Source of the DNA: an uncultured Actinomycetes bacterium
Lineage (GTDB): Bacteria > Actinomycetota > Actinomycetes > S36-B12 > GCA-2699445
Direction: 5' to 3'
NCBI GenBank assembly: GCA_964510455.1
Contig: CAZECO010000003.1
Coordinates: forward strand, 1-61,592
Length of the DNA stretch: 61,592 nucleotides
In this document: positions 8,648 through 48,759 of the stretch, in pieces
Layout: the number at the start of each line of letters is the position of its first letter
Position numbering within the stretch: position 1 is the first letter of the stretch
Program-made: the position numbers and the translations under genes
The notes under the pieces: model-generated
What the model was told of the DNA's origin: nothing
Database searches by the model: none
The model's input: only the letters and a program-made list of their open reading frames with translations

Positions 8648-8920
8648 GACTCACACCGCGACGCTCAGCAGGTCGCTCGAAAGTGCTGGCCTGGTCGAAA
8701 TCCCTTGCCCCGCAACGGATTTCACCCGAGCGGACGAGGGGACTCGAACCCCTAACCCCTGTTCACAAGTCGACTCCACCCCTGTTCGTCAACGTCCGGC
8801 GCCGTGCGGGTGGGTACGCGAAATGCGTTGCGGCACACGGGATTTCGTCCATCGTCATCCGCCTGCGACCGGCGGCGTTCCGCGACGCTTGTCCTTTGGA
8901 GGACTCACAGATGACTCACA
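8648..8920 (-). other. attP-like site 1: degenerate tRNA-Thr 3'-half core (8728-8769) with GACTCACA arm-type repeats
   Basis: The core's reverse complement is CTTGTGAACAGGGGTTAGGGGTTCGAGTCCCCTCGTCCGCTC. GACTCACA occurs at 8648, 8902 and 8913. Confidence 0.75.
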
Positions 8921-8934
8921 GAAGGCGGCGTCAC

Positions 8935-9070
8935 AGCGAGACCGAAGCATCTGGACCGAGTTCCTGCGCGACCTCCGTCGCCGCGGTCCACGGGGTTCCA
9001 GTTGGTCGTCTCCGATGCCCACACCGGACTGAAGGCCGCGATCAACACGGTGCTGCAGGGAGCGGCCGGG
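8935..9070 (+). pseudogene. IS256 transposase internal fragment
   Basis: Frameshifted 'SETE..WTEFLRDLRRRG...VVSDAHTGLKAAINTVLQGA..QR'. Confidence 0.75.
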
Positions 9071-9260
9071 CAGCGGTCATCCGTGACATGGGAAAGTGGC
9101 GGTCCTGGGGCCAGCGTCGCGGCTGGCGGGATGGCCCCTGGTTCACCTCCGCCCGTTGGGAGAGGACCTTGGCAACGTGACCCGGTGAGGTCCAGCGGCG
9201 GGTCTGGCACCCCCGGCAGACAGGTTGCCGCGTAGAACTCTCACGTTCTATGCTATCCCC

Positions 9261-9581
9261 GTGGACCAAGGCTGGGAGGTCATCCTCGAACCCGAGGTGA
9301 GCGCCTGGATCCTGGGCCTACCCGACATGCTCGCCCAGGGCGGACCCGGGCTGGGCCGGCCGTTGGTCGACTCGATCACCGGCAGTCGACACCAGAACAT
9401 GAAGGAGTTGCGGGTCGGCACCTGCCGGATCCTGTTCGCTTTCGACCCGACCAGGAACGCGATCCTGCTGGTCGCCGGCGACAAACGCGGCCAATGGCGC
9501 ACCTGGTACCCAGCAGCCATCGCCCTTGCCGACCAACGATTCGATGACTGGCTCAAGCACTTGAAAGGCGGCACACCATGA
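9261..9581 (+). CDS. Type II TA toxin, RelE/ParE-like (phage Gp49/HigB-like)
   Basis: 'GPGLGRPLVDSITGSRHQNMKELR..RILFAFDPTRNAILLVAGDK'; overlaps the downstream XRE gene by 4 nt. Confidence 0.85.
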   Translation: MDQGWEVILEPEVSAWILGLPDMLAQGGPGLGRPLVDSITGSRHQNMKELRVGTCRILFAFDPTRNAILLVAGDKRGQWRTWYPAAIALADQRFDDWLKHLKGGTP

Positions 9582-9889
9582 CCGGACACACCACTTGGTC
9601 CGACGTGCGCGAACAGCGCGGCACGACCCCGCAACGCCGCGCAGCAGCCCGCGAAGCCCTCGAGAACCAGATCGCCGGCTACCGCCTCGTCGAGCTGCGC
9701 AAGGCGCGTGGCCTGACCCAACAACAGGTTGCCACCACCATGGGGATCTCCCAACGCCGAGTCTCCGCGATCGAACGCGGCGACATCGACCGCTCCGAGC
9801 TGACAACCCTGCGCACGTACATCGAAGCTCTCGGCGGCCAGATCCACATCGTGGCAGAGTTCGACGACGTCACCACCCAGATCGCCTGA
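9578..9889 (+). CDS. XRE-family HTH antitoxin (HigA-like)
   Basis: 'LVELRKARGLTQQQVATTMGISQRRVSAIERG...LRTYIEALGG'; toxin-first gene order. Confidence 0.9.
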   Translation: MTGHTTWSDVREQRGTTPQRRAAAREALENQIAGYRLVELRKARGLTQQQVATTMGISQRRVSAIERGDIDRSELTTLRTYIEALGGQIHIVAEFDDVTTQIA

Positions 9890-9999
9890 TACCGCCCTCG
9901 CCAACGCCTGACGCGCCACCTGTCACTTGCGTCCCGTTCGGTCGAACTCACGTCCGAGCACGCTGGCAGATCGTCCCACGACACACCCCTTCCCCGTCG

Positions 10000-11478
10000 T
10001 TCTGGCGGAGGCTGCTCGACTGGTCGAGAAGGCACGCGAAGCTTTCCGCCACCGAGTGGGCCGCCCTCGACGTGGCCATCGCCGGGCTGGATGGTTTCAG
10101 CGACGACCAGGCCTACCGGGCGATGGACCTGCTGATCGGGGCCGACGCCACCGCGAAGGTGCAGGAGGCGGTGTTCTTCTCCGTGGCGAACCTGCTGAAC
10201 CTCGAGGTCGACCTGCTGATGTTCGACACGACGTCGTCGTACTTCGAGACCGACCGCCTGGACGAGGGGTTCCGCCGCCGCGGCCATTCCAAGGACCACC
10301 GCCCCGACCTGCCGCAGGTCGTCATCGGGCCGGCCGTGAGCAAGGAGGGGATCCCGGCGCGCTGCTGGTGCTGGCAGCCGGGGAACACCACCGACGTCTC
10401 GGTGCTGCCGGAGGTCCGCGACGGGATGCGGGACTGGAAGCTGGGCCGCGTGGTCACCGTGGCGGACCGCGGCTTCTCCTCCGATGCGAACCCGGCCTGC
10501 CTGCGGCGCGGCGGCGGGCACTGGATCGCCGGGGAGCGGATGCGCGACCGCAGCCCCGCCGCCGCCGCCGCGCTGGCCCGGCAGGGCCGGTTCACCCCCG
10601 TCGACGACCACCTGCTGGTCAAGGAGGCGAAGCTGGACTCCACCCCCGGGATCCGGTGGATCGTCTGCCTCAACCCCGCCGAAGCGGTCAAGGACAAGGC
10701 CACCCGGGAGAACGCGCTGGAACGGATCTCGGCGGAGCTGGACCGGATCGCCGCCGCCCGCGCCAAGACCGCCGCCGCGCTGGCCAGCGCCGGCGCCGCG
10801 AAGGCGAGTACCCGGCTGGAGGCGGAACTCGCCGGGCATGTGAAGGCCGAGTGCGCGCTGCGGGGACCACAAGGCGCTGGGCCGCTACCTGCGGCAGACC
10901 ACGACCGGGCGGCTCGTCATCGACCGTGCCAAGGTCGCGGCGGAGGAGAAGCTGGACGGCAAGTACCTGATCTCCACCTCCGACCCGCACCTGGCGCCCG
11001 CGGAGGCGGCGCTGGCGTACAAGAACCTGCTGGAGGCCGAGCGCGGCTTCCGGGACATGAAGTCCACCCTCGACCTGCGGCCGGTCTACCACCGCATCGA
11101 GCCCCGGATCCGCTCCCACGTGCTGATCTGCTGGCTGGCCCTGCTGCTGGTCCGCATCGCCGAGAACCGCACCGGCGCCACCTGGAACACCATCGCCGCC
11201 ACCATGCAGCGGCTGCACGAGATCACCCTCGCCGGACCCGCCGGCATCCTGGTGCAGAGCACCGACCCCACCCACGAGCAATCCGCGCTTCTCCGCGCCG
11301 GCAACGTGCCCCCGCCGGCCCGCCTGATGCGCGCAAACACGGCCTCACCCGCGTAAACACACCGCGGCGCACCCCTCCCGGGGCGTGGACACACGACCCC
11401 CCGCGCCGCACCAGCCGAAACCCGTTACCCCGCAAACACTATCGGCCAATCGCGTGACCACATCCTGCGGAACTCGGG
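10000..11478 (+). mobile_element. IS1634-family element, 5'-truncated, with a frameshifted transposase
   Basis: 'LLMFDTTSSYFE', 'GHSKDHRPDLPQVV', 'VVTVADRG', then a frameshift near 10862 into 'GKYLISTS...ERGFRDMKSTLDLRPVYHRIEPRIRSHVLIC'. The end reads CTGCGGAACTCGGG at 11465-11478. Confidence 0.85.
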
Positions 11479-11821
11479 TGCAGGGACCGCGATCCGCTGG
11501 CCAGCCCTTGTCCCCGGGTTAGAGCTGGCCAGAAGCCAAGAGGAGCAACACGCCGGTTCCTCTTGCAAACCTCCCCGCCTCGCCCGCCGCGCCCAGCCCC
11601 GGCAGTTCTGGACTGGCACGACTCTGTCCAGGCTGCTCCCACCCTGCGATCCCCGGATCCGGCTGCCTCCAGCTTCCCCCCCACCACTACGACTGCGGTC
11701 TCACACCTCCGTTCGAGCGCCTCGTGGCGCACCGGCTCGCTGCAACACCCCTACAAACTGACTGCATTTGTGCAATCACGGAAGAGTCCCAGGCGACTGC
11801 CGTCCACAAAGTCACGGCGGA

Positions 11822-12229
11822 CTACGTCCAGCGGGCCCCGGTGAGGCGACTCCCAATCTGCTCCTTCAAGCCCTCTGCAAAATGCTTGGGGACTATCGAG
11901 TCAGAGTTTTCAGTGTTGATCCAGTAGGTGCCGGTGAGGTGACCGTAATCGTTGAAGTCGACCTCGGCTCCCCACGTGGAGAGGCCACTGTTGGATCTGA
12001 CCCGGAGGGTAACGGTCATGCCGGATACGGCAACATCCTTGATCCGCGGCGTACGTTTTGCAGCATCGCTAGCCATCACAACGAACTCGCCCTGAGTGAT
12101 GCCCTCATCGAAGCAAAGCGGCGACTCCTTGCGGCGCTTCGTCTCTTTAGCATCCTTGTAGGCCGAGGTGGCGACGGCGGCGAGCACGACGGCACCAACG
12201 CCCACAGCCAGCTTTTCGACAAATCCCAT
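11822..12229 (-). CDS. Hypothetical protein with an N-terminal membrane anchor
   Basis: Hydrophobic N-terminus 'LAVGVGAVVLAAVA' followed by a globular-looking domain; visibly lower GC than the flanks. Confidence 0.6.
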   Translation of the reverse strand: MGFVEKLAVGVGAVVLAAVATSAYKDAKETKRRKESPLCFDEGITQGEFVVMASDAAKRTPRIKDVAVSGMTVTLRVRSNSGLSTWGAEVDFNDYGHLTGTYWINTENSDSIVPKHFAEGLKEQIGSRLTGARWT

Positions 12230-12339
12230 CTCGTACCCGATCGAAGTCGATTTTCCCAGAAAAGCATCTTACGCCTCGCAGCCCACTGACACGTTCTTTC
12301 CAAGAAGCGCCTGCGGGCCCCCATCGCGCCGCACTGACA

Positions 12340-12507
12340 GTGGATCAGTACCAAGCGGCGAAAGACCAGTTGCTCCGCTCCGCCTCGCACCGCCGCCAGA
12401 ACGACGCGTTCGCCCATCTGGATCGACTGGTGGAGCTCCATGAAGCTGGCATCCTGAGCGACGTCGAGTTCGGCGCCGCCAAGCTGAAGGTGCTTGGTCT
12501 GGCGTAG
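12340..12507 (+). pseudogene. Tandem SHOCT-domain C-terminal fragment or 55-aa mini-ORF
   Basis: Manual translation: (ALT)VDQYQAAKDQLL...AFAHLDRLVELHEAGILSDVEFGAAKLKVLGLA*. Below the ORF-track length cutoff. Confidence 0.65.
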
Positions 12508-12591
12508 ACCCGCCAGCGTTGTTGATGTGCCATCCAGGTGTGGGCTGAGTTAGGATCAAACTCCTTCTCCTTTCATAGGTGAGGGTTCTCA

Positions 12592-12624
12592 GAGGCGCCC
12601 CGGCCCTAGTGGCCGGGGCGCCTC
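12592..12624. terminator. 14-bp perfect GC-rich hairpin, probable intrinsic terminator
   Basis: GAGGCGCCCCGGCC-ctagt-GGCCGGGGCGCCTC. Confidence 0.6.
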
Positions 12625-12817
12625 CTGTTTCCGGGGCGGAAGCCCGCGTGGCACCAACAATCTGTCGAACGAGGCAGCGTGGAGAAGGGCGGGAAATCCA
12701 CTTGACGATCATCTCAAAAGTGATGTGATAACGCGGTTGGCTCTGAACTGAACGCCGATTTGGGGTTGGGGCTATTTGGCCCAACCTTGGACATCTCCGG
12801 ACGGATACTCTTCCGGC

Positions 12818-13333
12818 ATGCGCGTCATAGCTGCTACCACGCTCGCCGTAGTAATGACCCTCTCCGCTTGCGGATCCGACGAGCCTGCGAGTTCGCCTTC
12901 CAGCGGCGAACCGACAGCGACGCAGACAGAGACGCAGGGGGCGGAGGCGAAGTCTGCAACCGAGATCGGTAACGCGCTAATGGCCGAGATCCCTGAAATC
13001 TCCAATGTGGTCACGATCACCGAGGACAACGACCCGAACGACAAGATCGGCCGCCCGGGCGGTTACATCGACGGTGCGGTCATGTATGACTCGCGCGCCG
13101 AACCCCTCGGCGAAGAGCCCGGCGTAGACCAGGGTGCGTTCCTTGAGGTATGGCCAGACGAGGCTGCGGCCGCCGCCCGGGCGACGTTCATTCAGGACAC
13201 ACTCCAGGGCAGCGGCGGCGTCCTCGGCACCGAGTACCACTACCAGCACGAGGGGTACCTCTTGCGCGTCACGGGCAAGATCACTCCGTCCGAGGCGAAG
13301 GCGTACGAGTCCGCCTTCAACGCCCAGTTCTAG
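12818..13333 (+). CDS. Putative lipoprotein
   Basis: Signal peptide with lipobox LSAC, a Ser/Thr/Pro-rich linker, then a globular domain. Confidence 0.8.
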   Translation: MRVIAATTLAVVMTLSACGSDEPASSPSSGEPTATQTETQGAEAKSATEIGNALMAEIPEISNVVTITEDNDPNDKIGRPGGYIDGAVMYDSRAEPLGEEPGVDQGAFLEVWPDEAAAAARATFIQDTLQGSGGVLGTEYHYQHEGYLLRVTGKITPSEAKAYESAFNAQF

Positions 13334-13774
13334 TTGCTCGTGAGGGATGAGAACAAGATGATCGAGAGCGATATTCGCAACGGTGCCGGCTGCCCGGTGC
13401 CCGCCGCCGGGCAGGACGAGGACCTCCCGCGATCGACGTACAGGCCGCCGCGCGCGAGCTTCTGATGTTGGAAGGGCGCAAGTGGAATACCTTCGACCGC
13501 GCCGCTATCGACGCGGCGCCAGCGACTCCCACTGCTGGTGTCGGTCATTCAGCCGATCCTGAACTACTCGTTGCCAAACGTGGCTCGAGCCCGAGCTGGC
13601 CGCCCAACGCCGGCGAGGGCCTGTGGCCGGCGTTGGGCCTTGATCTAAGCCGAGCGCAGCCAGCAGTCTGCCCGCCGGGATCCGCGGTCGACCGGCGACA
13701 GTCGCAAAGGCGGATTTCAGCCCAGTTGGTGTACGGGTTGATGTACGAGGTCAATTTCGGGGGACTGCAAACCG

Positions 13775-13823
13775 CGAAATCCCTTGTCCCATAACACACT
13801 TGGTGCGTCCGGAGGGATTCGAA
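13775..13823 (-). other. att-like remnant: 3' end of a different tRNA (TTCGAATCCCTCCGGACGCACCA)
   Basis: T-loop, acceptor strand and CCA on the minus strand at 13801-13823. The adjacent CGAAATCCCTTG motif also occurs beside the Thr-type cores. Confidence 0.55.
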
Positions 13824-14062
13824 CTCCAAGCGACCGGGTCAAAGAGCCCTACCGTGCGCTCTTGGGCTACCGGCACGGTGTTCCGCACAGGGGACGAACT
13901 GGGGGATACACCCGAGGCCAGTCGGAGGATCGCCCGCCGACCCTGGAATCCCGGGGACGCATATGCCGCCCGGAGACCCGAGCCGCGCGCCCCGCGCGTC
14001 GGCCAAATGGGCAGCAGACGCTCAACGCGGACGAGTACAACGTGAGCCACACTCGCGCCTGT

Positions 14063-14359
14063 GACTCACAATGCGACGTTCATCAGCCTGCTCGAAGGTA
14101 CTGGCCTGGCCGAAATCCCTTGCCCCCCAACACATTTCACGAGAGCCGACGCGGGGACTCGAACCCCGAACCCCCTGTTTACAAGTCGACTCCACCCCTG
14201 TTCGCCCGCATCCGGCACCGTGCGTCGATGTACGCGAAATACGTTGCGGCACAAGGGGATTTCGTCCATCGTTGTCCGCTGGCGACCGGCGGCGTTCCGC
14301 GACGTTTATGCTCCGGAGGACTCACAGTTGACTCACACCCGACTCACGGATGACTCACA
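14063..14359 (-). other. attP-like site 2: tRNA-Thr(UGU) 3'-half core (14143-14185) with GACTCACA arm-type repeats
   Basis: The core's reverse complement is CTTGTAAACAGGGGGTTCGGGGTTCGAGTCCCCGCGTCGGCTC. Repeats occur at 14063, 14319, 14330, 14341 (GACTCACG) and 14352. Confidence 0.8.
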
Positions 14360-14519
14360 GGTGGGCGGCGCATGGCTGGCTCGATCTACCGCGTGTTTCC
14401 AGTTCGTCGACCTGCACGATGCCTGGTCGCGGTATCTCCCCCCTCATCGCCAAAAGCCGCTACACCCGCTACACCCGCTACAGACACCGACCAGGCACAC
14501 GCACGCCGAGACGGGGCCT

Positions 14520-15190
14520 GGCGCCGTAGCGGACGAAGCCCTATGCGGACCAGGAACCTGAGCATGAGGGTCTGGTCTTCGGGGTCGTGGTCGTTCATGA
14601 AGCCGTGCCCTGCGCCGGGGTAGATCTTGACGTCGTGCGGCACCTCGAAGCCGGTCAGCAGCCGGTCCAGGCGCCGGCCCGCCTTGTGCCCCAGCGGGGA
14701 CCGGTCGGCGCCGCCGAAGCTGCCGACGATCGGGCACGCCTGCGGCAGCCACTGCTCGGCGTCGGAGGGGCAGCCGCCGTAGTTGACGCTGGAACTGTCG
14801 AAGCCGCGGTCCGCCGCGGGCGCCAACGCGTAGCCCCGCCCTGCAGAAGCCGATGACGCCGACCATGCCGGTGCAGCCGTCGTGGCTGATCAGCCAGCGC
14901 CGGGCCGCGTCGATGTCGTCGAACGACCGGCCTCGGCGGACACCAAGGTCGCGCATGATGGTCCGCAGGCACCCCAGCCGGCTGCCCCAGTAGTACAGGT
15001 CCGGCGCCACCGCGAAGAACCCCTCGCTGGCCAGCCAGTCCGCCTGCGCCCGCAGGTCGTGGCTCATCCCGGTGAAGTCGTGGATCACCACGACGCCCGG
15101 CCAAGGCGGCGGCACCGTGGCCGGGCGGGCCACGTACGCGGGCATCGGTCCGTGCGGTGTGCGGATCTCGATGTCCTGCGCCGCGGTCAT
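14520..15190 (-). pseudogene. Dienelactone hydrolase family, frameshifted
   Basis: 'GVVVIHDFTG...GVIGFC', then a frameshift at the nucleophile elbow, continuing as 'VNYG...IYPGAGHGFMNDH'; the C-terminus degrades near the att-like site. Confidence 0.8.
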
Positions 15191-15293
15191 GGCCGCATTG
15201 TGCCCTCCGGGCACGCTGGCCAGCCTGGTGGAGCGCCGCGCGTACCGCCCACCTCGCCACGGACCCGCGAAATGGGCACTGGGCCGAGCGGTG

Positions 15294-15810: not shown

Positions 15811-16542
15811 TTGAGCGCCGCTCGCGGGCCCGCCCCCGTCCGCCGCAGCGCCGCCGCGCCCGACCTCTCGGCGGCGCGTGCGCGCCTGCTGGAGCACGTG
15901 CAGCAGCATCAGGGCGATCTCACCGTCGACGAGGTGGCCCGGGAGTTCGACCAGCACCCGAACACCGTGCGCGAGCACCTCGAGGCCCTGGTCGAGGGCG
16001 GCCTGGTGACCCGCGAGCGCATCGCCGGGCCGGGGCGCGGCCGCCCGGCCTGGCGCTACCGGGCCAGCCAGTCGCTGCGCGAGCCCGATCCGCGGGTGCG
16101 CGAGTACGGGGCGCTCGCCGGTGCGCTGGCGGCGCACATCGCGGCACACAGCCCGGATCCGCAGGCGGAGGCACGAACCGCGGGGGAGCGCTGGGGGCGG
16201 GCGCTGGTCGACGGCGGCGCGGGCGAAGCAGGCCTCGACCCCGCCGGCGTCAGGCGCGCGCCCCGTGGTCGGCCCGCCGCCCGGCGACGCGTCGTCGAAC
16301 TGTTGGCCGAGCTCGATTTCGGCCCGCGCGCCAACCGCGCCGACACAAGGATCGTGCTCACGACGTGCCCCCTGCTGGATGTCGCCAAGCGCCATCCCGA
16401 GGTGGTCTGCGCCGCGCACGAGGGAATGGTCGCGGGCGCACTGGACAGCCTGGGCGCGCCCTCCGACGGGGTCGCCCTCACGCCCTTCGGCGCCCCGGAC
16501 GGCTGCATCCTCGTCTTGCAAGCGCCCCGGGAGAGGCCGTGA
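15811..16542 (+). CDS. Winged-HTH transcription regulator with three C-terminal Cys (ArnR/SufR-like)
   Basis: HTH 'LTVDEVAREFDQHPNTVREHLEALV...GRGRPAWRY'; Cys spacing C-x13-C-x2-H-x28-C. Confidence 0.8.
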   Translation: MSAARGPAPVRRSAAAPDLSAARARLLEHVQQHQGDLTVDEVAREFDQHPNTVREHLEALVEGGLVTRERIAGPGRGRPAWRYRASQSLREPDPRVREYGALAGALAAHIAAHSPDPQAEARTAGERWGRALVDGGAGEAGLDPAGVRRAPRGRPAARRRVVELLAELDFGPRANRADTRIVLTTCPLLDVAKRHPEVVCAAHEGMVAGALDSLGAPSDGVALTPFGAPDGCILVLQAPRERP

Positions 16543-17651
16543 CCGCGCCGGCGATCACCGCCCGCGGACCCATCACGGCCGGCACGCGGACGACGATTCC
16601 CCGGCGCCGCCTGGTGCTTCTGGGCCTCGGTGGGATCAGCCTGCTGGCCGGGCTGAACGCGGGCCTGCTGCTTGCCGGCCTACCGGCCCCGATCCGCCTC
16701 GAACGGCTCGAGGCCGTGCACGGACCGCTGATGCTGCTGGGCTTCCTCGGCACCCTCATCGCCCTGGAGCGCGCCATCGCGCTGCGCACCCGGTGGGCGC
16801 TGCTGGCCCCGGGGCTGCTGGGCGGGGGCGGGCTCCTGCTCATCTCGCCGCTCCCGGAGTCCGCCGGCCACGCCGCCCAGACGCTGGGCGCGGCCGCGCT
16901 CTTCGGGGTGTACGCCGCGCTGTGGCGCCGCGGCGGGTCGGAGGCGCTGCTGATCCAGTGGCTCGGGTCGGTGCTCGCGGTGAGCTCGGCATTGCTGTGG
17001 TGGGCCGGGATCCCGACCGGTGCGATCCTGCCCTGCATCGCCGGATTCCTGGTGCTGACGATCGCCGGGGAGCGGCTGGAGTTGGCCCGCGTCGGCGGCC
17101 CGGACCCCGGGGCGGTGCGGCAGTTCGCGATCGCCACCACGCTGGCGGTCCCGCTCGCCGGGGCGGCGCTGCTGTGGCCCACGCCCGGCACGGAGCTGTT
17201 CGCCGGGACGCTGCTGGTCATCGCGGCCTGGTTGGCCCGACACGACGTGGCCGTGCGCCTCGTGCGGGGCACCGGGCTGCCGCGGTACGTGGCGGTGAAC
17301 ATCCTGGCCGGGATCGCGTGGCTGGCGGTCTGCGGGCTCACGCTCCTGCTGCTGGGTCCGCAGCACGACGGACCCGGGTACGACCTTGCGATCCACGCGG
17401 TCGGCCTGGGGTTCGCGATGTCGATGGTGCTGGCGCACGCCCCGATCATCCTGCCGGCGGTCCTGCTGCGGCCCCTGCCGTACCGGCCGGTCCTGTACGC
17501 CGCGACCGTGCTGCTGCAGGGCTCCCTGCTGCTGCGCGCCGCCGCGGATGTGCGCGAGCTCGGGTGGGCGTGGCAGGCCGGCAGCGCGCTCAACGTGGTC
17601 GCGGTGCTGGCGTTCCTGCTGATCTCCGTGACCCTGGTGGTGCGGCGATGA
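16539..17651 (+). CDS. Polytopic membrane protein with intramembrane His (NnrS-like)
   Basis: About 12 hydrophobic segments, 'HGPLMLLGFLGTLIALERA' and 'HAVGLGF..MVLAHAPIILP'. GTG overlaps the upstream stop. Confidence 0.75.
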   Translation: MTAPAITARGPITAGTRTTIPRRRLVLLGLGGISLLAGLNAGLLLAGLPAPIRLERLEAVHGPLMLLGFLGTLIALERAIALRTRWALLAPGLLGGGGLLLISPLPESAGHAAQTLGAAALFGVYAALWRRGGSEALLIQWLGSVLAVSSALLWWAGIPTGAILPCIAGFLVLTIAGERLELARVGGPDPGAVRQFAIATTLAVPLAGAALLWPTPGTELFAGTLLVIAAWLARHDVAVRLVRGTGLPRYVAVNILAGIAWLAVCGLTLLLLGPQHDGPGYDLAIHAVGLGFAMSMVLAHAPIILPAVLLRPLPYRPVLYAATVLLQGSLLLRAAADVRELGWAWQAGSALNVVAVLAFLLISVTLVVRR

Positions 17652-20197
17652 CCCGGGCGGGCTGGCATGTGCGGATGGGTTCGGTCGTGCTGGCGTGGAT
17701 CGCCGCGGCCGGCATGGTGTCGGTGCTGCATCGGCAGGTGCCCGCCGCGGGCTGGCTGATGGTGCATCTGCTGCTCCTGGGGGCGGTGAGCAACGCGCTG
17801 CTGGTGTGGAGCTGGCACTTCACGCAGGCGGTCCTGCGGCTGCCGGCGCCGGACCGGCGTGCGGAGGCGGCGCGGCTGATCGTTTTCAATGCGGGCGCGC
17901 TGGCCGTGGTCGGCGGCGTGATCGCCGATGCGCAGGGCCTCGTGGCGCTGGGTGGAGCGGTGGCGGCGGCCGCGGTCGTGACGCATGTGGTCGTGCTGGT
18001 CCGGGCGCTGCGCGGGGCGCTGCCGAGCCGGTTCGCCGTGACCGTGCGCTTCTATGTGGCCGCCGGAGCGCTGGCCGTGCCGACGATCGGCCTCGGGGTC
18101 GCCCTGGCCCGGGGCGCGCTGTCCGGCCTGGACCCCTCCGGAGTCGTCCTGGCCCACGCCGCGCTCGGCCTGCTCGGCTGGGTGGGACTGCCGATCCTGG
18201 GCACCCTGCTGACCCTGTGGCCGACCATGCTGCGCACCCGCATCGCCGGCACCGCGGAGCGGCACGCCCGGCAGGCCCTGCCCGCACTGGTGCTCGCGAC
18301 GCTGGTCGCCGCCGGCGGCCTGCTCGGCGGCGCGCCGATCATCGGCGGGCTCGGTGTGGCCGCGTACCTCTTGGCCGCGGTCTGGAGCATGGGGCCGATG
18401 GTGACGGAGATGCGCCGGCGCCCGCCCGCCTCCTTCGCCACCTGGTCGACGCTGGCCGGTGTCTGTTGGATCGGCGCGGCCCTGTTCGCCTTCGCGGTCG
18501 CGCTGCTCGCCTCGACGGGTTCCGCGGGCGGCAGGCTGACGGCCGCAGCCGTCGTCGGCGGGGTGCTGCAGGTGCTGCTCGGCTCGCTGTCCTACCTGCT
18601 GCCGGTGATGGCGGGCGGCGGGCCGGTCGCGGTCCGGGCCCGCAACGAGCGGGTCGACCGGGCGATGGCCCTCCGATTGGTGGTGACCAACCTGGCGCTG
18701 GCGCTATGCGTGTTGCCGAGCCCGTCGGCGGTGCGCGTGGTGGCGTCCGTCGCGGTGCTCGGCGCACTCGGCGCAACTGTCGCCGCGATCGGTACCTCGA
18801 TACGCGGGCAGCGTTCCGCGGCGAAGGGCGACCCGGCTGCTGTTCCGCCGGGCTGGGCCGCCCGTCACGGCTCGGGGCTGGCCGTCGGCCTGGCGATCGT
18901 GATGCTCGCGCTGTCGGCCGGCGTCGCCTTCGACCCTGCGGCGCTCGGCAGCGGTGCCTCGGGCGCCGCCCCCTCGGACGCCGGAGCCGCGCCGACGGGC
19001 GTCACGACCCGAGTGGAGGTTGCGGTCGAGGGAATGCGCTTCGTCCCGGACACCATCAGCGTCCCTGCCGGCAACTCCCTGGTGATCACGCTGACCAACA
19101 CCGGCGACGATGTCCACGACCTGACCTTGGAGACTGGGCAGCGCACCCCGCGCCTGAGCCCGGGCGAATCCGCGACGATGGACCTCGGGGTGATCGGCCG
19201 CGACCTGTCCGGTTGGTGCTCCATCGCCGGCCATCGGCAGATGGGAATGGTGCTGGCCATCGACGTGCCGGGGTCACAGACGGCCACCCATGATCATGCG
19301 AGTTCGGCGGACGGCGAGGCGCCGCGGGTGGACCTGATGGCGTCCCCGGGCGCCGGCTTCTCGGCCCGCGACGCGCGCCTGGCCCCGGCTCCGCCGGAAC
19401 GCGAGCACCACGTCCGCCTGGTCGTCACGGAGGTCGTCGCGGAGGTCGCCCCCGGGGTGCGGCAGACCCGCTGGACGTTCGGCGGCACGGTCCCGGGACC
19501 GGTGCTGCGGGGGAAGGTCGGCGACACGTTCGTCGTCACGCTCGTCAACGACGGCAGCATCGGCCACTCCATCGACTTCCACGCCGGCGCGCTGGCGCCC
19601 GACGGTCCGATGCGCACGATCGCGCCCGGCGAGGAGCTGGAGTACCGGTTCACCGCGAACCGGGCGGGGATCTGGATGTACCACTGCTCGACCATGCCGA
19701 TGTCGATGCACATCGCCAACGGGATGTTCGGGGCCGTCGTGATCGACCCGCCGGACCTGCCCGAGGTGGACCGGGAGTTCCTGCTGGTGCAGTCCGAGGC
19801 CTACCTGGGGCCGCAGGAGGGCACCGCAGACGCGGAGGCGATCGCCGCTGGCGAGGCGGACCTGGTGACGTTCAACGGGTACCCGATGCAGTACGACCAC
19901 GCGCCGCTGCAGGCCGGCGTCGGCGAGCGGATCCGCATCTGGGTGCTCGCCGCCGGGCCGAACCGGGGCAGCTCGTTCCACGTCGTCGGCGGCCAGTTCG
20001 ACACCGTCTACCGGGAAGGGGCGGTGGAACTGGCCCCCGGAAGCGGGGGAGCGCAGGCCTTGGGCCTGTTCCCGGCCCAGGGCGGATACGTCGAACTGGT
20101 GCTGCCCGAGGCCGGCAACTACCCGTTCGTCACGCACGCCATGAGCGATGCCGAGCGCGGGGCGCACGGCATCCTGCACGCCGGGCCGGTCGGCTGA
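17648..20197 (+). CDS. nirK: Copper nitrite reductase fused to an N-terminal polytopic membrane domain and a cupredoxin domain (849 aa)
   Basis: Cupredoxin type-1 site 'WCSIAGHRQMGM'. NirK motifs 'HSIDFHAG', 'MYHCSTMPMSMHIANGM', 'SSFHVVG' and 'YPFVTHAM'. ATG at 17648 is coupled to the upstream stop. Confidence 0.85.
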   Translation: MTRAGWHVRMGSVVLAWIAAAGMVSVLHRQVPAAGWLMVHLLLLGAVSNALLVWSWHFTQAVLRLPAPDRRAEAARLIVFNAGALAVVGGVIADAQGLVALGGAVAAAAVVTHVVVLVRALRGALPSRFAVTVRFYVAAGALAVPTIGLGVALARGALSGLDPSGVVLAHAALGLLGWVGLPILGTLLTLWPTMLRTRIAGTAERHARQALPALVLATLVAAGGLLGGAPIIGGLGVAAYLLAAVWSMGPMVTEMRRRPPASFATWSTLAGVCWIGAALFAFAVALLASTGSAGGRLTAAAVVGGVLQVLLGSLSYLLPVMAGGGPVAVRARNERVDRAMALRLVVTNLALALCVLPSPSAVRVVASVAVLGALGATVAAIGTSIRGQRSAAKGDPAAVPPGWAARHGSGLAVGLAIVMLALSAGVAFDPAALGSGASGAAPSDAGAAPTGVTTRVEVAVEGMRFVPDTISVPAGNSLVITLTNTGDDVHDLTLETGQRTPRLSPGESATMDLGVIGRDLSGWCSIAGHRQMGMVLAIDVPGSQTATHDHASSADGEAPRVDLMASPGAGFSARDARLAPAPPEREHHVRLVVTEVVAEVAPGVRQTRWTFGGTVPGPVLRGKVGDTFVVTLVNDGSIGHSIDFHAGALAPDGPMRTIAPGEELEYRFTANRAGIWMYHCSTMPMSMHIANGMFGAVVIDPPDLPEVDREFLLVQSEAYLGPQEGTADAEAIAAGEADLVTFNGYPMQYDHAPLQAGVGERIRIWVLAAGPNRGSSFHVVGGQFDTVYREGAVELAPGSGGAQALGLFPAQGGYVELVLPEAGNYPFVTHAMSDAERGAHGILHAGPVG

Positions 20198-21441: not shown

Positions 21442-21485
21442 GACGGGCCGCCCGGTCCTACCGACGCCCGCCCCCGGGCCAGGCA

Positions 21486-21785: not shown

Positions 21786-21827
21786 CAGGTTCCCTTTCGT
21801 CATGGGTCAATCAGCCTAGGATTCAGT

Positions 21828-25698: not shown

Positions 25699-25861
25699 CT
25701 GGTCGTCCTCCTCGTGCGTGGGGAGCATTGGGCCGTCCGGAATCGATGATGATGCGCGACGCCGGAGGATGGCGATTCTGGGCGGATTCGACCGGATGTG
25801 GCTGATTCCAGGCGCCAATCGTGCAACCGCCGACGATCTGCGACTCGGCTGCCCTGGTCCA

Positions 25862-31731: not shown

Positions 31732-31732
31732 G

Positions 31733-39312: not shown

Positions 39313-39567
39313 ATGGTGACGGTGCGCCTGTTCGCGGCGGCCCGCGAGGCCCTCGGAGCGGCGGAGGTCGAGGTCCCGCACGGACCGGTCCGCGACGTGT
39401 GCTCGCGGATCGAGGGGTCGGTGGAGGCGCAGCGGCGCCCTCGGGTCGCCGCGGTGCTGGCGATGAGCACGCTGCTGTGCGACGGGGTCCGCCACCGGGC
39501 AGCAGATGACGCAATGCTGCCTGCCGGGTCGGTCCTCGACGTCCTGCCGCCGTTTGCCGGGGGGTGA
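39313..39567 (+). CDS. moaD: MoaD/ThiS sulfur carrier
   Basis: 'VRLFAAARE' and C-terminal 'DVLPPFAGG'. Confidence 0.93.
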   Translation: MVTVRLFAAAREALGAAEVEVPHGPVRDVCSRIEGSVEAQRRPRVAAVLAMSTLLCDGVRHRAADDAMLPAGSVLDVLPPFAGG

Positions 39568-39569
39568 CG

Positions 39570-40718
39570 ATGACCGCGACGCTCGAAGCACCCGTGGCCG
39601 TGCAAACGTCATGGTGGCGGGAGGCCGGGGGATCGGTGGCCGACCTCGGGGTGCTGATCCCGATCGCGGTTGCGCTCATCGTCGCCAACGGGTTGTCGGT
39701 CACGGCGGTGCTGCTGCCCGCCGGTTGTGCCTATCTATTGGTCGCCCGCGTCTACCGGGTTCCCGTCGCAGTTCAGCCGTTGAAGGCGTTCGGCGCGTTG
39801 GCCATCGCAGTGGGGGCGGGAGTAGATCTGATCGCCGCGGGTGCGCTCCTGATGGGCGTCCTCTTCATCGGCCTCGGTGCCAGCGGGGCCGTGGACCGGC
39901 TTGCGAAGTTCTTCCCCCTTCCGGTCATCAGAGGAGTCCAGTTGGCGGTCGGGCTGACGTTCGGCAAGATCGCGTGGGGACTCATCACAAACCCGCCAGC
40001 CAACTTCTCGCACCAACCGCCGCAGACCTTGGTCGCGCTGGGCGCGGTGATCGGGGTTGCGCTGCTCCTGATGTGGCGTGGTGCGGCCGCCCTGGCGCTG
40101 GTCGCCGCCGGATTGGGGATCGCGATCATCGTGAGCATCGACTCCCTCGGCGTCGGGCTCGGTCCGACAGCCCTGGCAGTGCCCTCGATCGACTGGCAGA
40201 CGCTGGGTCTCGCCCTGACGCTCTTGGTGCTGCCGCAGGTGCCGTTGACGTTCGCCAACTCGTGCCTGGCTCCGGCCGACGCGGCCGCGGCGTACTACGG
40301 GCCAGCCGCAGCCGCGGTGCGACCCGGTCGCCTCGCGCTCACACTCGGCGGGACCAACGTGGCGGTGGCGGCGATCGGCGGGATGCCGTTGTGCCACGGC
40401 GCAGGAGGAATGAGCGCGCACTACGCGTTCGGCGCACGGACGTGGCGAGCCCCGGTGATCATCGGGTCCGCGCTCGTAGCGGCGTCCCTGCTGCTGGCCG
40501 CCCCCCTTGCGGTTGTGCTGCGATCCTTCCCGTTGCCCGTCTTGGCTGCGCTACTCGTCGTGGCAGGCGTCACGCATGCCCAACTGGTACGCGACGTTCG
40601 AGGGCCGGTCCCGTGGATGGTAGTCCTCGGCATAGGCCTGGCGGGACTGTTCGGATACCTGCTGTGGGGCGTGCTCGTCGGGGTGGTCATCACGGCGATC
40701 AGGAGGCGTGTCCCGTGA
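39570..40718 (+). CDS. Putative molybdate transporter (MOT1-like)
   Basis: 'ADLGVLIP', 'PVAVQPLKA', 'LPQVPLTFANS' and 'GMPLCHGAGGMSAHYAFGAR'; last gene of the moa operon. Confidence 0.8.
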   Translation: MTATLEAPVAVQTSWWREAGGSVADLGVLIPIAVALIVANGLSVTAVLLPAGCAYLLVARVYRVPVAVQPLKAFGALAIAVGAGVDLIAAGALLMGVLFIGLGASGAVDRLAKFFPLPVIRGVQLAVGLTFGKIAWGLITNPPANFSHQPPQTLVALGAVIGVALLLMWRGAAALALVAAGLGIAIIVSIDSLGVGLGPTALAVPSIDWQTLGLALTLLVLPQVPLTFANSCLAPADAAAAYYGPAAAAVRPGRLALTLGGTNVAVAAIGGMPLCHGAGGMSAHYAFGARTWRAPVIIGSALVAASLLLAAPLAVVLRSFPLPVLAALLVVAGVTHAQLVRDVRGPVPWMVVLGIGLAGLFGYLLWGVLVGVVITAIRRRVP

Positions 40719-40850: not shown

Positions 40851-41011
40851 TGCCCACGCCGGCCTGAAGGCCGCGATCAACACGGTGCTACAGGGAGCGG
40901 CCGGGCAGCGGTCATCCGTGACATGGGAAAGTGGCAGTCCTGCGGCCAGCATCGCAGCTGGCGGGATGGCCCCCCTGGCTCACCTCCGCCGTTGGGAGAG
41001 GACCTTGGCAA
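40851..41011 (+). repeat. Partial copy of the repeat's right part (IS256 fragment; matches 9016-9175)
   Basis: Near-identical from 'CTGAAGGCCGCGATCAACACGG' to 'GGACCTTGGCAA'. Confidence 0.85.
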
Positions 41012-41012
41012 G

Positions 41013-41150: not shown

Positions 41151-41299
41151 CGACGTGGACAGAGAACTGACCCGGTCCGCCCCACTGATGCTGGATCGCG
41201 AGCGAACGAAGCGAAGGGCTGCTCATCGAGCACTTGCAGGTCCGCGGGCACGCCGTGTTCCCAGTCTCGCTGCGATTCCCTTGGTGGCCCGAGCCTGCT

Positions 41300-41935
41300 C
41301 GAGCAGGTGCAGCGAATCGAAGCGCTGCTGGAAGCAGCCAACGATCGAGTCACGCTGGGCGGGGCCTTCGCCGAGCGCGTCGTTCGCCAGCTCCCGGCGC
41401 GAGCTGCACGCGAGGCCGTCCTCAACGGAGTGGTTCACCGGGACTGGAACCTCCACGATCCAACGACCGTGACCTGGGTCGAGGCCGATGTCTCTCTGAC
41501 CGTTGTCTCCCCTGGCGGGTTCGTCGGCGGCGTGAACGCGGACAACGTGCTGACCCAGCGGTTCAGCCGCTCGCCCGCACTGGCCGATGCGATCCGGGCC
41601 CTCGGACTCGTGGACAAGCAGGGCATTGGCGTGGACCGCATGTACCGGGAGATGGTCACCCTCGGCCACCGCTCCTCGTCGAAGAACCCGGACCACGGGT
41701 CCGGGCACGCCTGGTTGGGGGGTCCCCGGTGGTGCCCATCATGCGTCTGACCTCCCGCATCCAGCCTGGTGCCCGGCAACGAGACGTTCAGATCGCCCTC
41801 ATCGTGTTCATCCTCCTGCATCAGCCGTTCACGACCCCCGATCACATGGCCACGGTGCTACAACGCACGCTCGGCGAAGCCGAGGAAGCCCTGGACAGCG
41901 CCAGCCGGTGCGTCATCGATGAGCAACCCGTCATC
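41300..41935 (+). pseudogene. Fragment of an ATP-binding protein with a RecG-C-terminal/HATPase_c_4-like domain
   Basis: 'AREAVLNGVVHRDW', 'VVSPGGF..V' and 'LGLVDKQGIGVDRMY'; no N-terminus and frameshifted. Confidence 0.7.
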
Positions 41936-41939
41936 GACC

Positions 41940-42650
41940 CCTGCGTCGTCAACGGGGCCAAGACGTTCATCACCTCCGGCGTCCGTGGCGACTTCGTCAC
42001 CACGGCGGTCCGTACTGGTGGGCCAGGCTTCGGCGGCATCAGCCTGCTGGTCATCGAGCAGGGCACGCCCGGCTTCACGGTCGCCCGGCCGCCGCAGAAG
42101 ATGGGCTGGCACTGCTCGGACACCGCCGAGCTCAGCTTCACCGACCTTCGAGCCCCCGCGGGCCAACCTCATCGGGGAGGAGAACGGCGGGTTCGTGCTG
42201 CTCATGCAGAAGCCCGTCGACGAACGCCTCGGCCTGGCGGTCCAGGGATACGCCACCGCGCAGCGCGCCCTCGACCTGGCCGTCCGCTACGCCAGGGCCC
42301 GCGATACCTTCGGCAAGCCGCTGGCCAGCCGACAGCTGATCCGGCACAAGCTCGTGGAGATGCATCGGCGCACCCATGCCGCTCGCACCGTGACCCGCGT
42401 CGCGATCGAGCGATCGCTGGAGCCTCCCGCCACGGATCGCGGGGTGACCCGCGACGCCGTCATGGCCAAGAACACGGCCGTGGAGGCGGTGGAGTGGGTG
42501 GTCAGCGAATCGGTCCAGATCCACGGCGGCACGGGCTATATGCGCGAATCCGAGATCGACCGCCACTACCGTGACGCCCGCATCCTGGGCATCGGCGGCG
42601 GCGCCACGGAGGTCCTGACCGAACTCGCCGCGAAGCCCCTCGGATACTGA
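41940..42650 (+). pseudogene. Acyl-CoA dehydrogenase C-terminal part, frameshifted
   Basis: 'VNGAKTFITSG', 'KMGWHCSDTAELSF' and 'QIHGGTGYMRESEIDRHYRDARILGIGGGATE'. Confidence 0.85.
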
Positions 42651-45310: not shown

Positions 45311-45316
45311 GCGGTA

Positions 45317-47057
45317 TCAGGCTGGGAGGGTGTAGCGGGCCTGGACCAGGTCGAGGACGATCTGTCTACTCTGCCATGGCTCGACGTCGTTGCGTCGTTC
45401 GATCTGCTCAGTCGCGTCGGCGAGATAGTCGTCGCGCACTGCGTGGCGGAACCACGCCGAGTAGTCACCTCGGCGCAGGTGGAACATCCAGGTCTGCTCG
45501 TCGACTCCCTCGGCGAGCTGGCAGAAGACGGCCAGGTTCTGTGCCTTGAGGTTGAGCCTGTCGTCCGGACCGCGGAAGTAGAAGCTGTGCCAGCGCAAGT
45601 CGCCCTCAGCGTACTTGCGCCGGTGGCGGATGCGCTCCGCGCGCCCCGCCTGGGGTCGCATCGAGAACGCCCTCGGCGTGGCGTCCGCGAGCATCCAGGC
45701 GACCACACGCCCCGGCTGATAGCTGAGTTCGTCACCATCGGGCGCCGGACGCCCGGCGGCCTCGGCGAATGCGGTGAGCGTCTCGTGGGGTGACGGCCCT
45801 ACCGCCACCACGACGTCGACCGGGTGGAGCACATTCGGCTCGACGTGCGCCGGATGAACGGTGACAAGGATCGTCTCGGCCAGCGTCATGGGCAGAACCG
45901 CCGGGCTGTGCCCCCAGGTCTCAGGCAGCAGGTGGTGGGCCTCGTCCAGGACGATCCAGTGCGGACGACCAGTTCGGGCGCGCATAGCCTGTAGCGCCGG
46001 TACGAGCTGGGCTAGGAAGGCGGGCCGGTCACCCAGTGGGATGCCGAGGATGTTGACGCTGACGTTGACCTTCGGGTCCTCAAGGATGCCCGTGATCTCG
46101 CTGACGCTCGGTGCACGCCACTGGTTGCCGAGGGCCACGACGTCGCGCAGCGTGGAGTAGTCGCCCTCCGGGTCGATGACGCACACCTGATAGTCCTTGT
46201 CGATCAGCCGCTCGATGACGCCGGCCACGAATGTCGACTTGCCACTGGCCGACGGACCGGCGACCAACATGTTGTGCCCGTACGGCGCAAGGTGCACCTC
46301 CGCTCCCTGGGCATCGGTGCCCAACCTGATCCAGTGCTGGGGCAGCTTGCCCCCCAGCCGGCTCAGGTCGTCGGCGATGACCTCGTCGATCAACTCGACG
46401 ACCCCCGCGCCGTTCTCTCCCTGGGTGACGAAGGCTGCGGCCTCCTTGATCGACGGCGACGCGTTGGCCACCGCCACTGGACACTCACTGTGGCGCAAGA
46501 ACGAATGATCGTTCTCGGCGTCGCCGATCGCCACGACCTCGTGTCGCGACAGGCTCATGTCACGCAACGCGTGGGCCAATCCGCTGGCCTTGTTGACACC
46601 GGCAGGCAGCAGCATCACCGCACTGCGGTTGCCGATCACCTGCACCTCCAGGCCCAGCTCCCAGATGACCTCCTGAACTGCGGCACGGTGATTGGCCCGA
46701 GTGCCGACCACTACCTGACCGATCTCGAGCGGATCAACCCCTCGGTCCCTGAGGGCGTCAAGCAGACGAGTGGGCAACGGATCGGTGAGCCGGGTGCGTT
46801 CGCGGGTCTTCGGGTTGTATTTGACCGCACCGTTCTCGGCGACAACGCGGGCGAACAGCTCTACGCAGGTGCAGTCCTCGAGCAGGTGGTCCACTCGGCG
46901 CCCCGTGACCAGGATCGCCCGGCGACCGGACGTCCTCAGGCGCTCCAGGGCCGCCACGGCAGCGTCCGGTACCGTGTCGTGCCGGGCCAGCGTCCGGTAC
47001 CGTGTCGTGCCGGGCCAGCGTCCCGTCGAAGTCAATCGCGACTGCCAGATACCGCAA
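45317..47057 (-). pseudogene. HAD-IIB (Cof-like) phosphatase fused to a P-loop ATPase, frameshifted by a 28-bp tandem duplication
   Basis: TTG start 'MRYLAVAIDFDGTL', 'GVNKASG', 'GDAENDH', Walker A 'GPSASGKST' and 'LDEAHH'; duplication at 46961-47016. Confidence 0.85.
46961..47016. repeat. Exact 28-bp tandem duplication
   Basis: AGCGTCCGGTACCGTGTCGTGCCGGGCC twice, followed by AGCGTCC. Confidence 0.95.
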
Positions 47058-47740
47058 ACAACCCTCCCGACCCCGCAGGCACCCACCCCGAGCCTGCGCC
47101 AGACCCGGTTACGCACCGAGCACGCTCTGTCGGCGATGACCTCGACCATACGGTCTAACCCGCTGGCCCATCCAGCGGTGGACTGATCTTGGAGGTCGGT
47201 GGATGTCAGCGCCTTCCTCGACCAGCACGTCCTTTGGAAGTCGCCGACGGCGGTGAGCCAGCGATGCGCAGGCTGCAGAGCCCGGTCGTGCTGGGCCTGG
47301 GATCGTGATGGTCGCGGGCATGCCCGGACATGCGGCGCTGAGGCTGCCGGATCCCAGCGCTGGCGGAGCCAGCTGTCAGTGGGCATGATGGTGCTCGTCG
47401 GACGCCATGGAGGCCACGATGAAACCGGCACCCACTGCTGAAGGAACCGACACGGGTCCGCACATTCATGACGGAAGCGGCGCCAACAAATTCGTCGCTG
47501 GGAAAGCGAAGGGGGCTCCTTGGGCCCGGCCCATTAGGGATCCGGAAGCAATCGCGCAAGACAAAGCAAACCCTGACCTGGCGGTCCCCCGCAGTGCATC
47601 ACTTCGGCTCCCTGGTGTTGTAAACTCGCCGACGAGACTGACCAGGGGCACCGCCAGCGCGTCCTGAATCCGGGCTCGGCGCTCCTGGCTGCGCTCCCCA
47701 GCCTCGGCCCGCATGGCCCGTGCCCGGGGACCCCTCGCGC

Positions 47741-48759
47741 GCGCGACGACTTCCTTGGAGGGGATTCTCGCCAACTCCACCGCAGGTGGGGCATGCTCCG
47801 CGAGCAGCGCTACGACGTAATCGACATGGAGAGCGGGGACACCGCCATCCTCCGGCTTACGTGGACCGGTGTGATCGGCCAGACGATCGGCCCCTTCGTC
47901 GAAGGTCAAGTGCTGACCGCGCACATCGCACAGTTCGTTCGAGTTGAGGATGATCGGATCGCATCCATCGAGACCTACGACCTGCTATGAGCCGATGCCA
48001 GACGCCGGCCTGCCGAACCACAGGCCTGATTTGTGGGGGAGAACAGGCGGCGGCCCCCGGCGGAGATCTTTTCATCTCGTGGTCACGGAGTGCCTGGCTC
48101 GCTTAGTTTGCTGCACCAGTGCCCTTTCAACCGCATCCGTCAGGTGGGCGTGGCACTAACTCCGAAATCAACTCGTCCGGGACGGCGAGCGCCCGGTGAG
48201 GCCGGGTCGGGCAGCAAGCGGAGCTACACGATGACTCACAACGCGACGCTCAGCAGCCTGCTCGAAAGTGCTGGCCTGGTCGAAACCCCTTGCGCTGCAA
48301 CGGATTTCACGAGAGCCGACGAGGGGACTCGAACCCCTAACACCCTGTTTACAAGTCGACTCCACCCCTGTTCGTCAAGGTCCGGCGCCATGCGTGTGGG
48401 TATGCGAAAAGCGCTGCGGCACACGGGATTTCGTCCATCGTCATCCGCTTGCGACCGGCGGCGTTCCGCGACGCTTGTGCTTTGGAGGACTCACAGAGGA
48501 CTCACAGAGGACTCACAAAGGGGCGGCGTCACAGCGAGACCGAAGCAGATGGACCGAATTCCTGCGCGACCTCCGTTTCCGCGGTCTACGGGTTCCAGCT
48601 GGTCGTCTCCGATGCCCACACGGCCTGAAGGCCGCGATCAACACGGTGCTGCAGGGAGCGGCCGGGGCATCGGTCATCCGTGACATGGCACAGTGGCGGT
48701 CCTGCGGCCAGCATCGCGGCTGGCGGCATGGTCCCCCTGGTTCACCTCCGCCGTGGGAG
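47741..48759 (+). repeat. ~1-kb diverged direct repeat, copy 2 (SnoaL fragment + att-like site + IS256 fragment)
   Basis: Co-linear with 8156-9162. Confidence 0.9.
48233..48517 (-). other. attP-like site 3: tRNA-Thr(UGU) 3'-half core (48313-48355) with GACTCACA arm-type repeats
   Basis: The core's reverse complement is CTTGTAAACAGGGTGTTAGGGGTTCGAGTCCCCTCGTCGGCTC. Repeats occur at 48233, 48488, 48499 and 48510. Confidence 0.8.

Follow-up and report, generated by a model that had tools for sequence, protein, structure and literature searches.

Predicted attP-type sites with a tRNA-Thr core and phased arm repeats bound integrase-less islands in an uncultured actinobacterial genome

Three co-oriented units with a tRNA-Thr(UGU) core

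The DNA analysed here (the window) is the entire contig C3, 61,592 nucleotides long, from a metagenome-assembled genome (MAG) of an uncultured actinobacterium, which comprises 3.9 Mb in 526 contigs with a contamination of 3.7% and visible strain variants. The window carries three sites at which a part of tRNA-Thr(UGU) is flanked on both sides by copies of the short word GACTCACA. These sites are very probably attP-type attachment sites of a tyrosine-integrase element family that targets tRNA-Thr(UGU), and their arrangement may have been left behind by tandem accretion of such elements. The units, and the one trace of an integrase gene beside them, are as follows.

8647–8920, + strand: site 1, attP-type unit; P-arm GACTCACA at 8648–8655, core at 8728–8769, P′ array at 8902–8909 and 8913–8920
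14062–14371, + strand: site 2, attP-type unit; P-arm GACTCACA at 14063–14070, core at 14143–14185, P′ array at 14319, 14330, 14341 (GACTCACG) and 14352
14372–14394, + strand: integrase gene remnant, first 8 codons (MAGSIYRV); homology to the intact gene on contig C187 of the same MAG stops at 14394
48232–48517, + strand: site 3, attP-type unit; P-arm GACTCACA at 48233–48240, core at 48313–48355, P′ array at 48488, 48499 and 48510

The three sites are homologous copies of one unit of ~280 bp, with pairwise identities of 84–85%, and all of them face the same way. The core, with its tRNA sense on the minus strand, spans 42–43 nt from the anticodon loop to the 3′ end of tRNA-Thr(UGU). Together with 31 nt downstream, the 43-nt tRNA part makes up a 74-nt match to the tRNA-Thr(UGU) gene on contig C51, with identities ranging from 96% (site 2) to 90.5% (site 1). 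Counting distances from the tRNA 3′ end, a lone P-side GACTCACA lies at −80 in all three sites, and the P′ arrays begin at +174, +176 and +175 (sites 1, 2 and 3), that is, 133–134 bp past the core. The arrays have a period of exactly 11 bp and comprise two, four and three copies, respectively, GACTCACG being the third copy of site 2. Arm-type repeats that differ in sequence from the core thus flank it on both sides at each site. The sites, coordinates and geometry are as described in the original prediction, which had been made from the letters of the window.

The arm word is concentrated in these units. All 11 exact occurrences of GACTCACA in the window fall within the three units and on the + strand (shuffled sequences give 1.75 on average and at most 6), and genome-wide 18 of 35 occurrences, plus every clustered pair, are located in five att sites. 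Among the four attP copies known in this genome (the fourth is described below), the arm-word columns of the alignment are invariant (24 of 24), versus 155 of the 219 other columns (Fisher p = 4e-4). We note that the exact spacing does not amount to three independent coincidences: the sites are homologues of one unit and inherited it from a common ancestor.

No tRNA gene was found in the window by ARAGORN, and a tblastn search of the window with the genome's own integrase returned no integrase, the eight codons at site 2 being the sole remnant. No relaxase was found in the window either, and Rfam gave no RNA family match at the att sites.

The core of site 2 differs from the C51 tRNA by a compensatory change in the T-stem, in which the 49:65 pair is C:G instead of A:T (14151 C and 14167 G). 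The same variant is found in the core of a related element, L066, and on unlinked contigs assembled from the source metagenome. It is consistent with a core that was formerly the 3′ half of a functional tRNA in a different host.

A second conserved word, TTG(C/T)GCTGCAACG(G)NTTTC, is partly palindromic and follows closely on the tRNA 3′ end in a number of att sites belonging to different elements (8700–8727, 14115–14142 and 48285–48312 in the window; 9875–9905 and 17505–17530 in L069), and a related word recurs in the P′ arm. It may be the site of a second protein or the remnant of a tRNA terminator. A 20-mer across the junction of core and P′ arm, common to three of the four copies, was also compared with metagenome contigs; its single match was a chance one and revealed no relative.

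An integrase-linked copy and the tRNA-Thr(UGU) locus

The fourth copy of the unit lies on contig C187 (2702–3005) and is 88–92% identical to the window sites (89% to site 2 over 14062–14394, and 92% to site 3). Its last GACTCACA runs directly into an intact open reading frame (ORF) of 372 amino acids (MAGSIYRVSDGKWMAQVS...). As judged from its sequence, this ORF is a tyrosine recombinase: it contains a Phage_integrase domain (E = 9e-27), and the residues of the catalytic set (R, HxxR, H and Y) can be read. Its N terminus matches Arm-DNA-bind_4 weakly and below the cut-off (E = 0.0057), and it scores 46 bits against the integrase_gron model, for which the cut-off is 265. In a search that covered 5.8 billion sequences, the closest proteins are 50–58% identical; the nearest phage relative is the integrase of mycobacteriophage Giles, with 34% identity. 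A scan of genome contigs with the C187 integrase alone gave distant matches only.

On the P-arm side of the unit on contig C187 (coordinates of L038), we also observed a VapB/VapC (ribbon-helix-helix/PIN) pair and fragments of a transposase, at 3390–4093 and 4205–5704, the latter assigned to the Tn3 family from translated sequence alone.

The genuine tRNA-Thr(UGU) gene of the genome is on contig C51, at c[7504-7577]. On its 3′ side are copies of GACTCACA at −79, at −91 and, in inverted form, at −113, and beyond these arm repeats lie a NikA-like gene, a MobA/VirD2-type relaxase gene and a Fic gene (the NikA-like and relaxase assignments being weak matches). The opposite flank of the tRNA gene is conserved chromosome: it carries a sugar ABC transporter region, and two genomes of the same genus show synteny with it next to their tRNA-Thr gene. 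By its order of P arm, core and the rest of the tRNA, the locus looks like an attR with a mobilizable element beside it. The absence of an integrase and of a tRNA gene, which the original prediction had put forward, therefore holds for the window and fails for the genome, where an intact tRNA-Thr(UGU) and a tyrosine integrase were both found beside the same arms; and the C187 copy contradicts the possibility that no integrase-associated att site with this arm motif exists.

A degenerate att relic is present in two genomes of the same genus (G001, L062 12389–12474; G002, L058 992–1080). It consists of a core and the start of a P′ arm, with a GTCACAC word ~81 bp upstream. The 97% homology between the two genomes stops exactly at the relic core, and the G002 relic is 2.2 kb from the tRNA-Thr gene. 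Two possible ties between the window and these genomes were rejected. A reading of the left part of the window as native tRNA-Thr flank is not supported, as its G001 homologues are 45 kb from the relic, on the opposite side, and G002 is without them; and an apparent synteny with the sister genome G001, in which homologues of 10037–11321 lie ~1.5 kb before the att relic, was discounted because the gene is a frameshifted IS1634-family transposase.

Arm position is kept among related integrases

The same geometry is found beside the integrases that are 50–58% identical to that of C187. There, a core made of a tRNA 3′ half is located ~165–220 bp upstream of int, and a direct-repeat pair with a period of 11–14 lies 20–100 bp before the int start codon. 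Four other repeat words occupy this position, and in two cases the word is present in both arms. In a genome of the same family (G008), a 10.3-kb element lies between a 47-bp tRNA-Thr repeat and a tRNA-Thr(UGU) gene, in the order 47-bp repeat, int, element body and tRNA; two copies of GTGGGTCCA stand a short way upstream of int, and three more lie 80–115 bp from the tRNA end. The other loci are listed here.

L066: word GTGGGTATC; tRNA-Thr UGU; contig ends 218 bp after int
L067: word TGGGTAYC; tRNA-Arg ACG
L069: word GTGAGTGCAGT; tRNA-Val UAC; word in both arms, attR 7.6 kb away

An arm position that is kept while the word changes with the integrase lineage is, at the level of sequence comparison, as expected of arm-type sites. 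The linkage of the unit to the C187 integrase, the arm repeats at the C51 tRNA gene and the geometry in relatives all support the view, already part of the original prediction, that the window sites are attP-like sites with arm-type repeats.

Islands between the sites

The sites divide the window into three intervals, each with island-type cargo. The blocks, intervals and main genes are listed in order along the contig.

6440–7777, + strand: IS256-family (Mutator-type) transposase, intact, immediately left of the first repeat block
8156–9153, + strand: 1-kb direct repeat, copy A; 3′ part of an NTF2/SnoaL-like gene (gene 8038–8415), site 1 and an IS256-family fragment
8921–14061, + strand: interval 1, decayed remnant of 5.1 kb; comparatively low GC (66%); ~2.7 kb with weak coding signal
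9225–9889: HigB/Gp49-like gene and helix-turn-helix antitoxin gene pair (interval 1)
~9950–11356: IS1634-family transposase, frameshifted near 10700 (interval 1)
14395–47740: interval 2, anaerobic-respiration island of 33 kb (nitrate/nitrite respiration and molybdenum cofactor)
14386–15214, − strand: dienelactone hydrolase, split over two frames
16121–20197: NirK-type fusion (interval 2)
20263–21810, − strand: Radical SAM/SPASM protein
24022–25818, − strand: NarH
25862–29905, − strand: NarG (TIGR01580, 1640 bits)
39564–40718: molybdate transporter (interval 2)
41234–42650, + strand: acyl-CoA dehydrogenase, split over two frames
47741–48752, + strand: 1-kb direct repeat, copy B; NTF2-like fragment (47790–47981), site 3 and an IS256-family fragment
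48753–61592: interval 3, copper island of at least 12.8 kb, running off the contig
49394–51246, − strand: two-component system (interval 3)
51686–53143: multicopper oxidase (interval 3)
54697–57183: copper P-type ATPase with heavy-metal-binding domains (interval 3)
60665–60826: IS256-like fragment at the contig end

Interval 2 further encodes TehA/SLAC1, a major facilitator superfamily transporter, MoeA, MobA, MoaC, MoaB-MoaE, MoaA, a universal stress protein and a HAD-ATPase, and interval 3 a DUF305 protein and a cation diffusion facilitator. The dienelactone hydrolase and the acyl-CoA dehydrogenase, each read in two frames, are probably pseudogenes inside the island. Both 8921–14061 and 14395–47740 are bounded by att units, and no integrase or relaxase was found in either, as in cis-mobilizable elements (CIMEs). 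A foreign origin of intervals 2 and 3 was considered on the basis of composition and set aside, as both look native.

Copies A and B of the 1-kb repeat are 91.5% identical. The IS256-family fragment of copy A (~8950–9175) is internal and frameshifted (Transposase_mut, E = 1.6e-4), and at both site 1 and site 3 such a fragment abuts the array where the start codon of an integrase would be expected. A third copy of the fragment is located at 40851–41011. The metagenome also carries an allele of the IS1634-family gene with a 1-nt deletion at 10862.

Depth step and alternative junctions at the cores

Sequencing depth was taken from Logan contigs (k = 31) for four runs of one study, X1–X4, and for X5, a compost run of a different study. 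Approximate depths in the first four runs are given below.

Window 1–14163: X1 94; X2 48–56; X3 59–66; X4 50–71
Window 14175–61592: X1 54–67; X2 30–37; X3 37–42; X4 36–46
C51, chromosomal side: X1 72; X2 41; X3 40–44; X4 52
C187, integrase segment: X1 88; X2 44; X3 73–83; X4 55
C187, flanks: X1 63–65; X2 32–39; X3 40–42; X4 43–52

In each of X1–X4 the depth drops ~1.3–1.7-fold exactly at the core of site 2 (14163/14175), and no such step is seen at sites 1 and 3. In addition, one contig of the source metagenome links the C51 P arm with a P′ arm, and another links the C187 P′ arm and int with a C51-like P arm. The depth step and these alternative P/P′ junctions mark the cores as branch points among co-existing variants. 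Branching at the cores is what recombination in the core would produce, and it also gives some scope for an assembler join at site 2. The C187 integrase segment is deeper than both of its flanks, which places the integrase in at least two contexts within the community. In the compost run, variants typical of C187 reach ~140×, versus ~3–23× for the window's own flanks, and the integrase-linked version thus seems to be present in other communities as well.

Two further approaches to the site halves were tried and given up. Phasing them from public runs failed, as the distinguishing single-nucleotide polymorphisms (SNPs) are 34–38 nt apart and beyond the reach of k = 31 contigs. Mosaicism between P and P′ arms was considered as a sign of core exchange; site 3 is nearest to C187 in its P arm and nearest to site 1 in its P′ arm, differences in identity that are slight and not significant.

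Tandem accretion and its alternatives

The explanation that we favour, with moderate confidence, is that the window sites are attP remnants of integrative, mobilizable elements, left by tandem site-specific accretion and subsequent decay. Each unit would be ordered P arm, core and P′ arm, with strand exchange against the chromosomal tRNA gene predicted to take place within the core. The GACTCACA words are predicted arm-type sites that the N-terminal domain of the integrase would bind, and in the P′ arm the helically phased array of two to four copies would immediately precede the start codon of int. Recombination between the attP of an incoming circle (P-O-P′) and a resident attR (P-O-B′) would create a fresh attR at the tRNA gene and leave a P-O-P′ junction in the interior, and repeated rounds would place co-oriented attP-type junctions between successive elements. 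Later loss of int would then turn these elements into CIME-type islands bounded by att sites; the eight codons left at site 2, and the IS256-family fragment at the start-codon position of sites 1 and 3, would be traces of that loss. The islands remaining today would be the remnant with its insertion sequence (IS) and toxin–antitoxin genes, the 33-kb Nar/NirK/molybdenum-cofactor island and the copper island. That accretion proceeded in such an ordered series is slightly more probable than not.

The co-orientation of the sites, and intervals that combine typical island cargo with IS debris and pseudogenes, fit an accretion array. Several observations pull the other way. The MAG yielded no attL (chromosome-core-P′). 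Overlaps of contig ends do not connect C3, C51 and C187, so that the window lacks a physical link to the tRNA-Thr locus, and no excisionase gene was seen beside the C187 integrase. Sites 1 and 3 share their flanks on both sides, and are therefore copies of one junction block and not independent accretion events. The P arm of the window units carries a single GACTCACA. Intervals 2 and 3 are indistinguishable in composition from the rest of the genome, and the contig may join DNA of different abundance at the core of site 2. The original prediction had taken the sites for junctions of tandemly integrated elements; this survives as the best reading and is unproven, given the missing tRNA link and the shared block of sites 1 and 3. 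Its analogy to a cassette array went too far, as the intervals are multi-gene islands with IS debris and pseudogenes, in the known pattern of accretion and CIMEs.

The strongest alternative, which we nevertheless regard as unlikely, is that the sites are genuine attP remnants whose layout results from the activity of IS256, IS1634 and Tn3 elements together with homologous recombination, by which parts of one or two elements or plasmids with an attP were inserted, duplicated and rearranged, the intervals being arbitrary and partly native chromosome. Such shuffling would account for the IS256-family fragments that abut sites 1 and 3 and recur at 40851–41011, for the intact IS256 and frameshifted IS1634 genes nearby, and for the duplication of a 1-kb block that includes non-att flanks; the native composition of intervals 2 and 3, and the lack of an attL and of a link to the tRNA locus, are also in its favour. 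However, it would leave unexplained that all three sites are co-oriented, that each is full from P through core to P′ and has suffered loss on its integrase side only, and that the cargo is typical of islands. In addition, the 8.5% divergence of the two 1-kb copies is hard to square with a recent IS-mediated duplication.

An extension of tandem accretion, in our view unlikely, is that the integrase-less sites are still live. The intact C187 integrase could recombine the window sites in trans, and would then excise, reinsert and reshuffle islands of 5–34 kb between attP-type sites and tRNA-Thr. The region would in that case be a tRNA-anchored island array served by an integrase in trans, its composition varying among co-existing cells, and the abundance step at the site-2 core, along with the contigs carrying alternative P/P′ junctions, would be its footprint.

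The same depth step could instead mean that at least site 2 is an assembler join through the shared core. The sequence up to 14163 and that from 14175 onwards would then come from different strains or replicons, and the three sites would be spread over more than one molecule. This we consider improbable. The step appears in X1–X4, contigs break at 14163/14175, the SNPs specific to the left and right sides (14167 and 14205) are 38 nt apart and outside k = 31 linkage, and the contamination of 3.7% and the strain variants of the MAG make mixing conceivable. Yet a 60-nt contig (14143–14202, depth 68 in X1) ties the SNPs of the site-2 core to a P′-type arm, and not to the tRNA 5′ half or to the arm of C187 type, which is one T shorter. 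If the assembly used k = 55, as 55-bp overlaps of contig ends suggest, one 55-mer would span both SNP sets of site 2. In runs X1 and X3, one 233-nt Logan contig (8626–8858) extends through site 1 from the P arm across the core into the P′ arm, and neither site 1 nor site 3 shows a depth step.

Finally, inert tRNA-derived repeats spread by block duplication, with a functionless GACTCACA spacing, can be dismissed as highly improbable: the identical spacing does follow from homology of the copies, of which only four are full, but an intact integrase gene adjoins one copy of the unit, the words also stand at the genuine tRNA locus, relatives keep the geometry with other words, and the arm words are invariant among diverged spacers.

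Comparison with known systems

The layout matches the known pattern of accretion and CIMEs, and reveals no new mechanism. Accretion that leaves internal chimeric att sites ('attI') and CIMEs is reviewed in PMC5704250, with ICESt1/ICESt3-CIME in Streptococcus thermophilus, the IME_Sag2603_tRNALys composite and Streptomyces pathogenicity islands as examples; its reference list includes work on how pathogenicity islands of Streptomyces accreted site-specifically. As in those cases, co-oriented att sites of one integrase system separate islands without integration or transfer genes, the internal junctions bear arms of both neighbours, the target is a tRNA 3′ end, and a functional integrase located elsewhere could mobilise the islands. 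Unlike them, the junctions here are complete attP-type units in three copies, two of which are copies of one 1-kb block, and the array is known only apart from the tRNA gene. The host, too, is different, being an uncultured high-GC actinobacterium known from a MAG.

In mycobacteriophages, the attP core derives from a tRNA, lies 5′ of int and has pairs of 11-bp arm-type repeats on its two sides; the arm words differ between related integrases, and the attP of Pixie has two arms plus one inverted arm on the left and three on the right (PMC3203893). The attP sites of L5, Giles, Pixie and Tweety resemble the present units in their core from a tRNA 3′ part, their place 5′ of int and their pairs or triplets of ~11-bp repeats on both sides. 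The element here is not a phage, however, as NikA-like, relaxase and Fic genes accompany the copy at the tRNA gene. It also differs from these phages in its arm word, GACTCACA, and in its target, tRNA-Thr(UGU), and the window copies are without int.

Respiration islands in tandem at a structured RNA are also reported in PMC3146451, where islands with vinyl-chloride reductase in Dehalococcoides are located at the single-copy small-RNA gene ssrA. The two systems share the site-specific placement of respiratory-enzyme islands at the 3′ end of a structured RNA gene, and differ in integrase family, host and target gene.

Three other types of element do not match. Integron arrays have an IntI-type integrase, attI, Pc and short single-gene cassettes that end in attC hairpins, whereas here there is no integron integrase, the repeated units are 280-bp attP-type sites and the islands are multi-gene and 5–33 kb long. 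Actinomycete integrative and conjugative elements (AICEs) carry a replication gene and an FtsK/SpoIIIE-type Tra in addition to their integrase; what adjoins the tRNA gene here is an element with relaxase-type genes and Fic, and no Tra or Rep genes were seen beside it on the fragmentary contigs. A tRNA-derived repeat of the kind of miniature inverted-repeat transposable elements or short interspersed nuclear elements would move without an integrase and occur in many dispersed copies, as opposed to only four full copies plus the attR in 3.9 Mb.

The units provide a dissected att site, with core, arm word, spacing and cognate integrase, for an uncharacterised and rare integrase lineage of uncultured actinobacteria whose closest relatives are at most 58% identical. 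A complete island for nitrate/nitrite respiration with molybdenum cofactor synthesis and a copper island lie between sites that an integrase elsewhere in the genome could still use, which bears on how respiratory and metal-resistance traits spread between related strains of engineered or compost-type communities. As a pair, integrase and attP could also become an integration-vector tool for high-GC actinobacteria.

Other features of the window

Left of the sites, a SAM-IV riboswitch (RF00634, 50.8 bits) is located at 4190–4306 on the + strand, inside the mechanically called ORF 4125–5375; the true downstream gene must therefore start 3′ of the riboswitch. Beside the intact IS256 copy, the 55 bp at 7943–7997 are identical to the start of contig C184, which marks a branch of the assembly graph.

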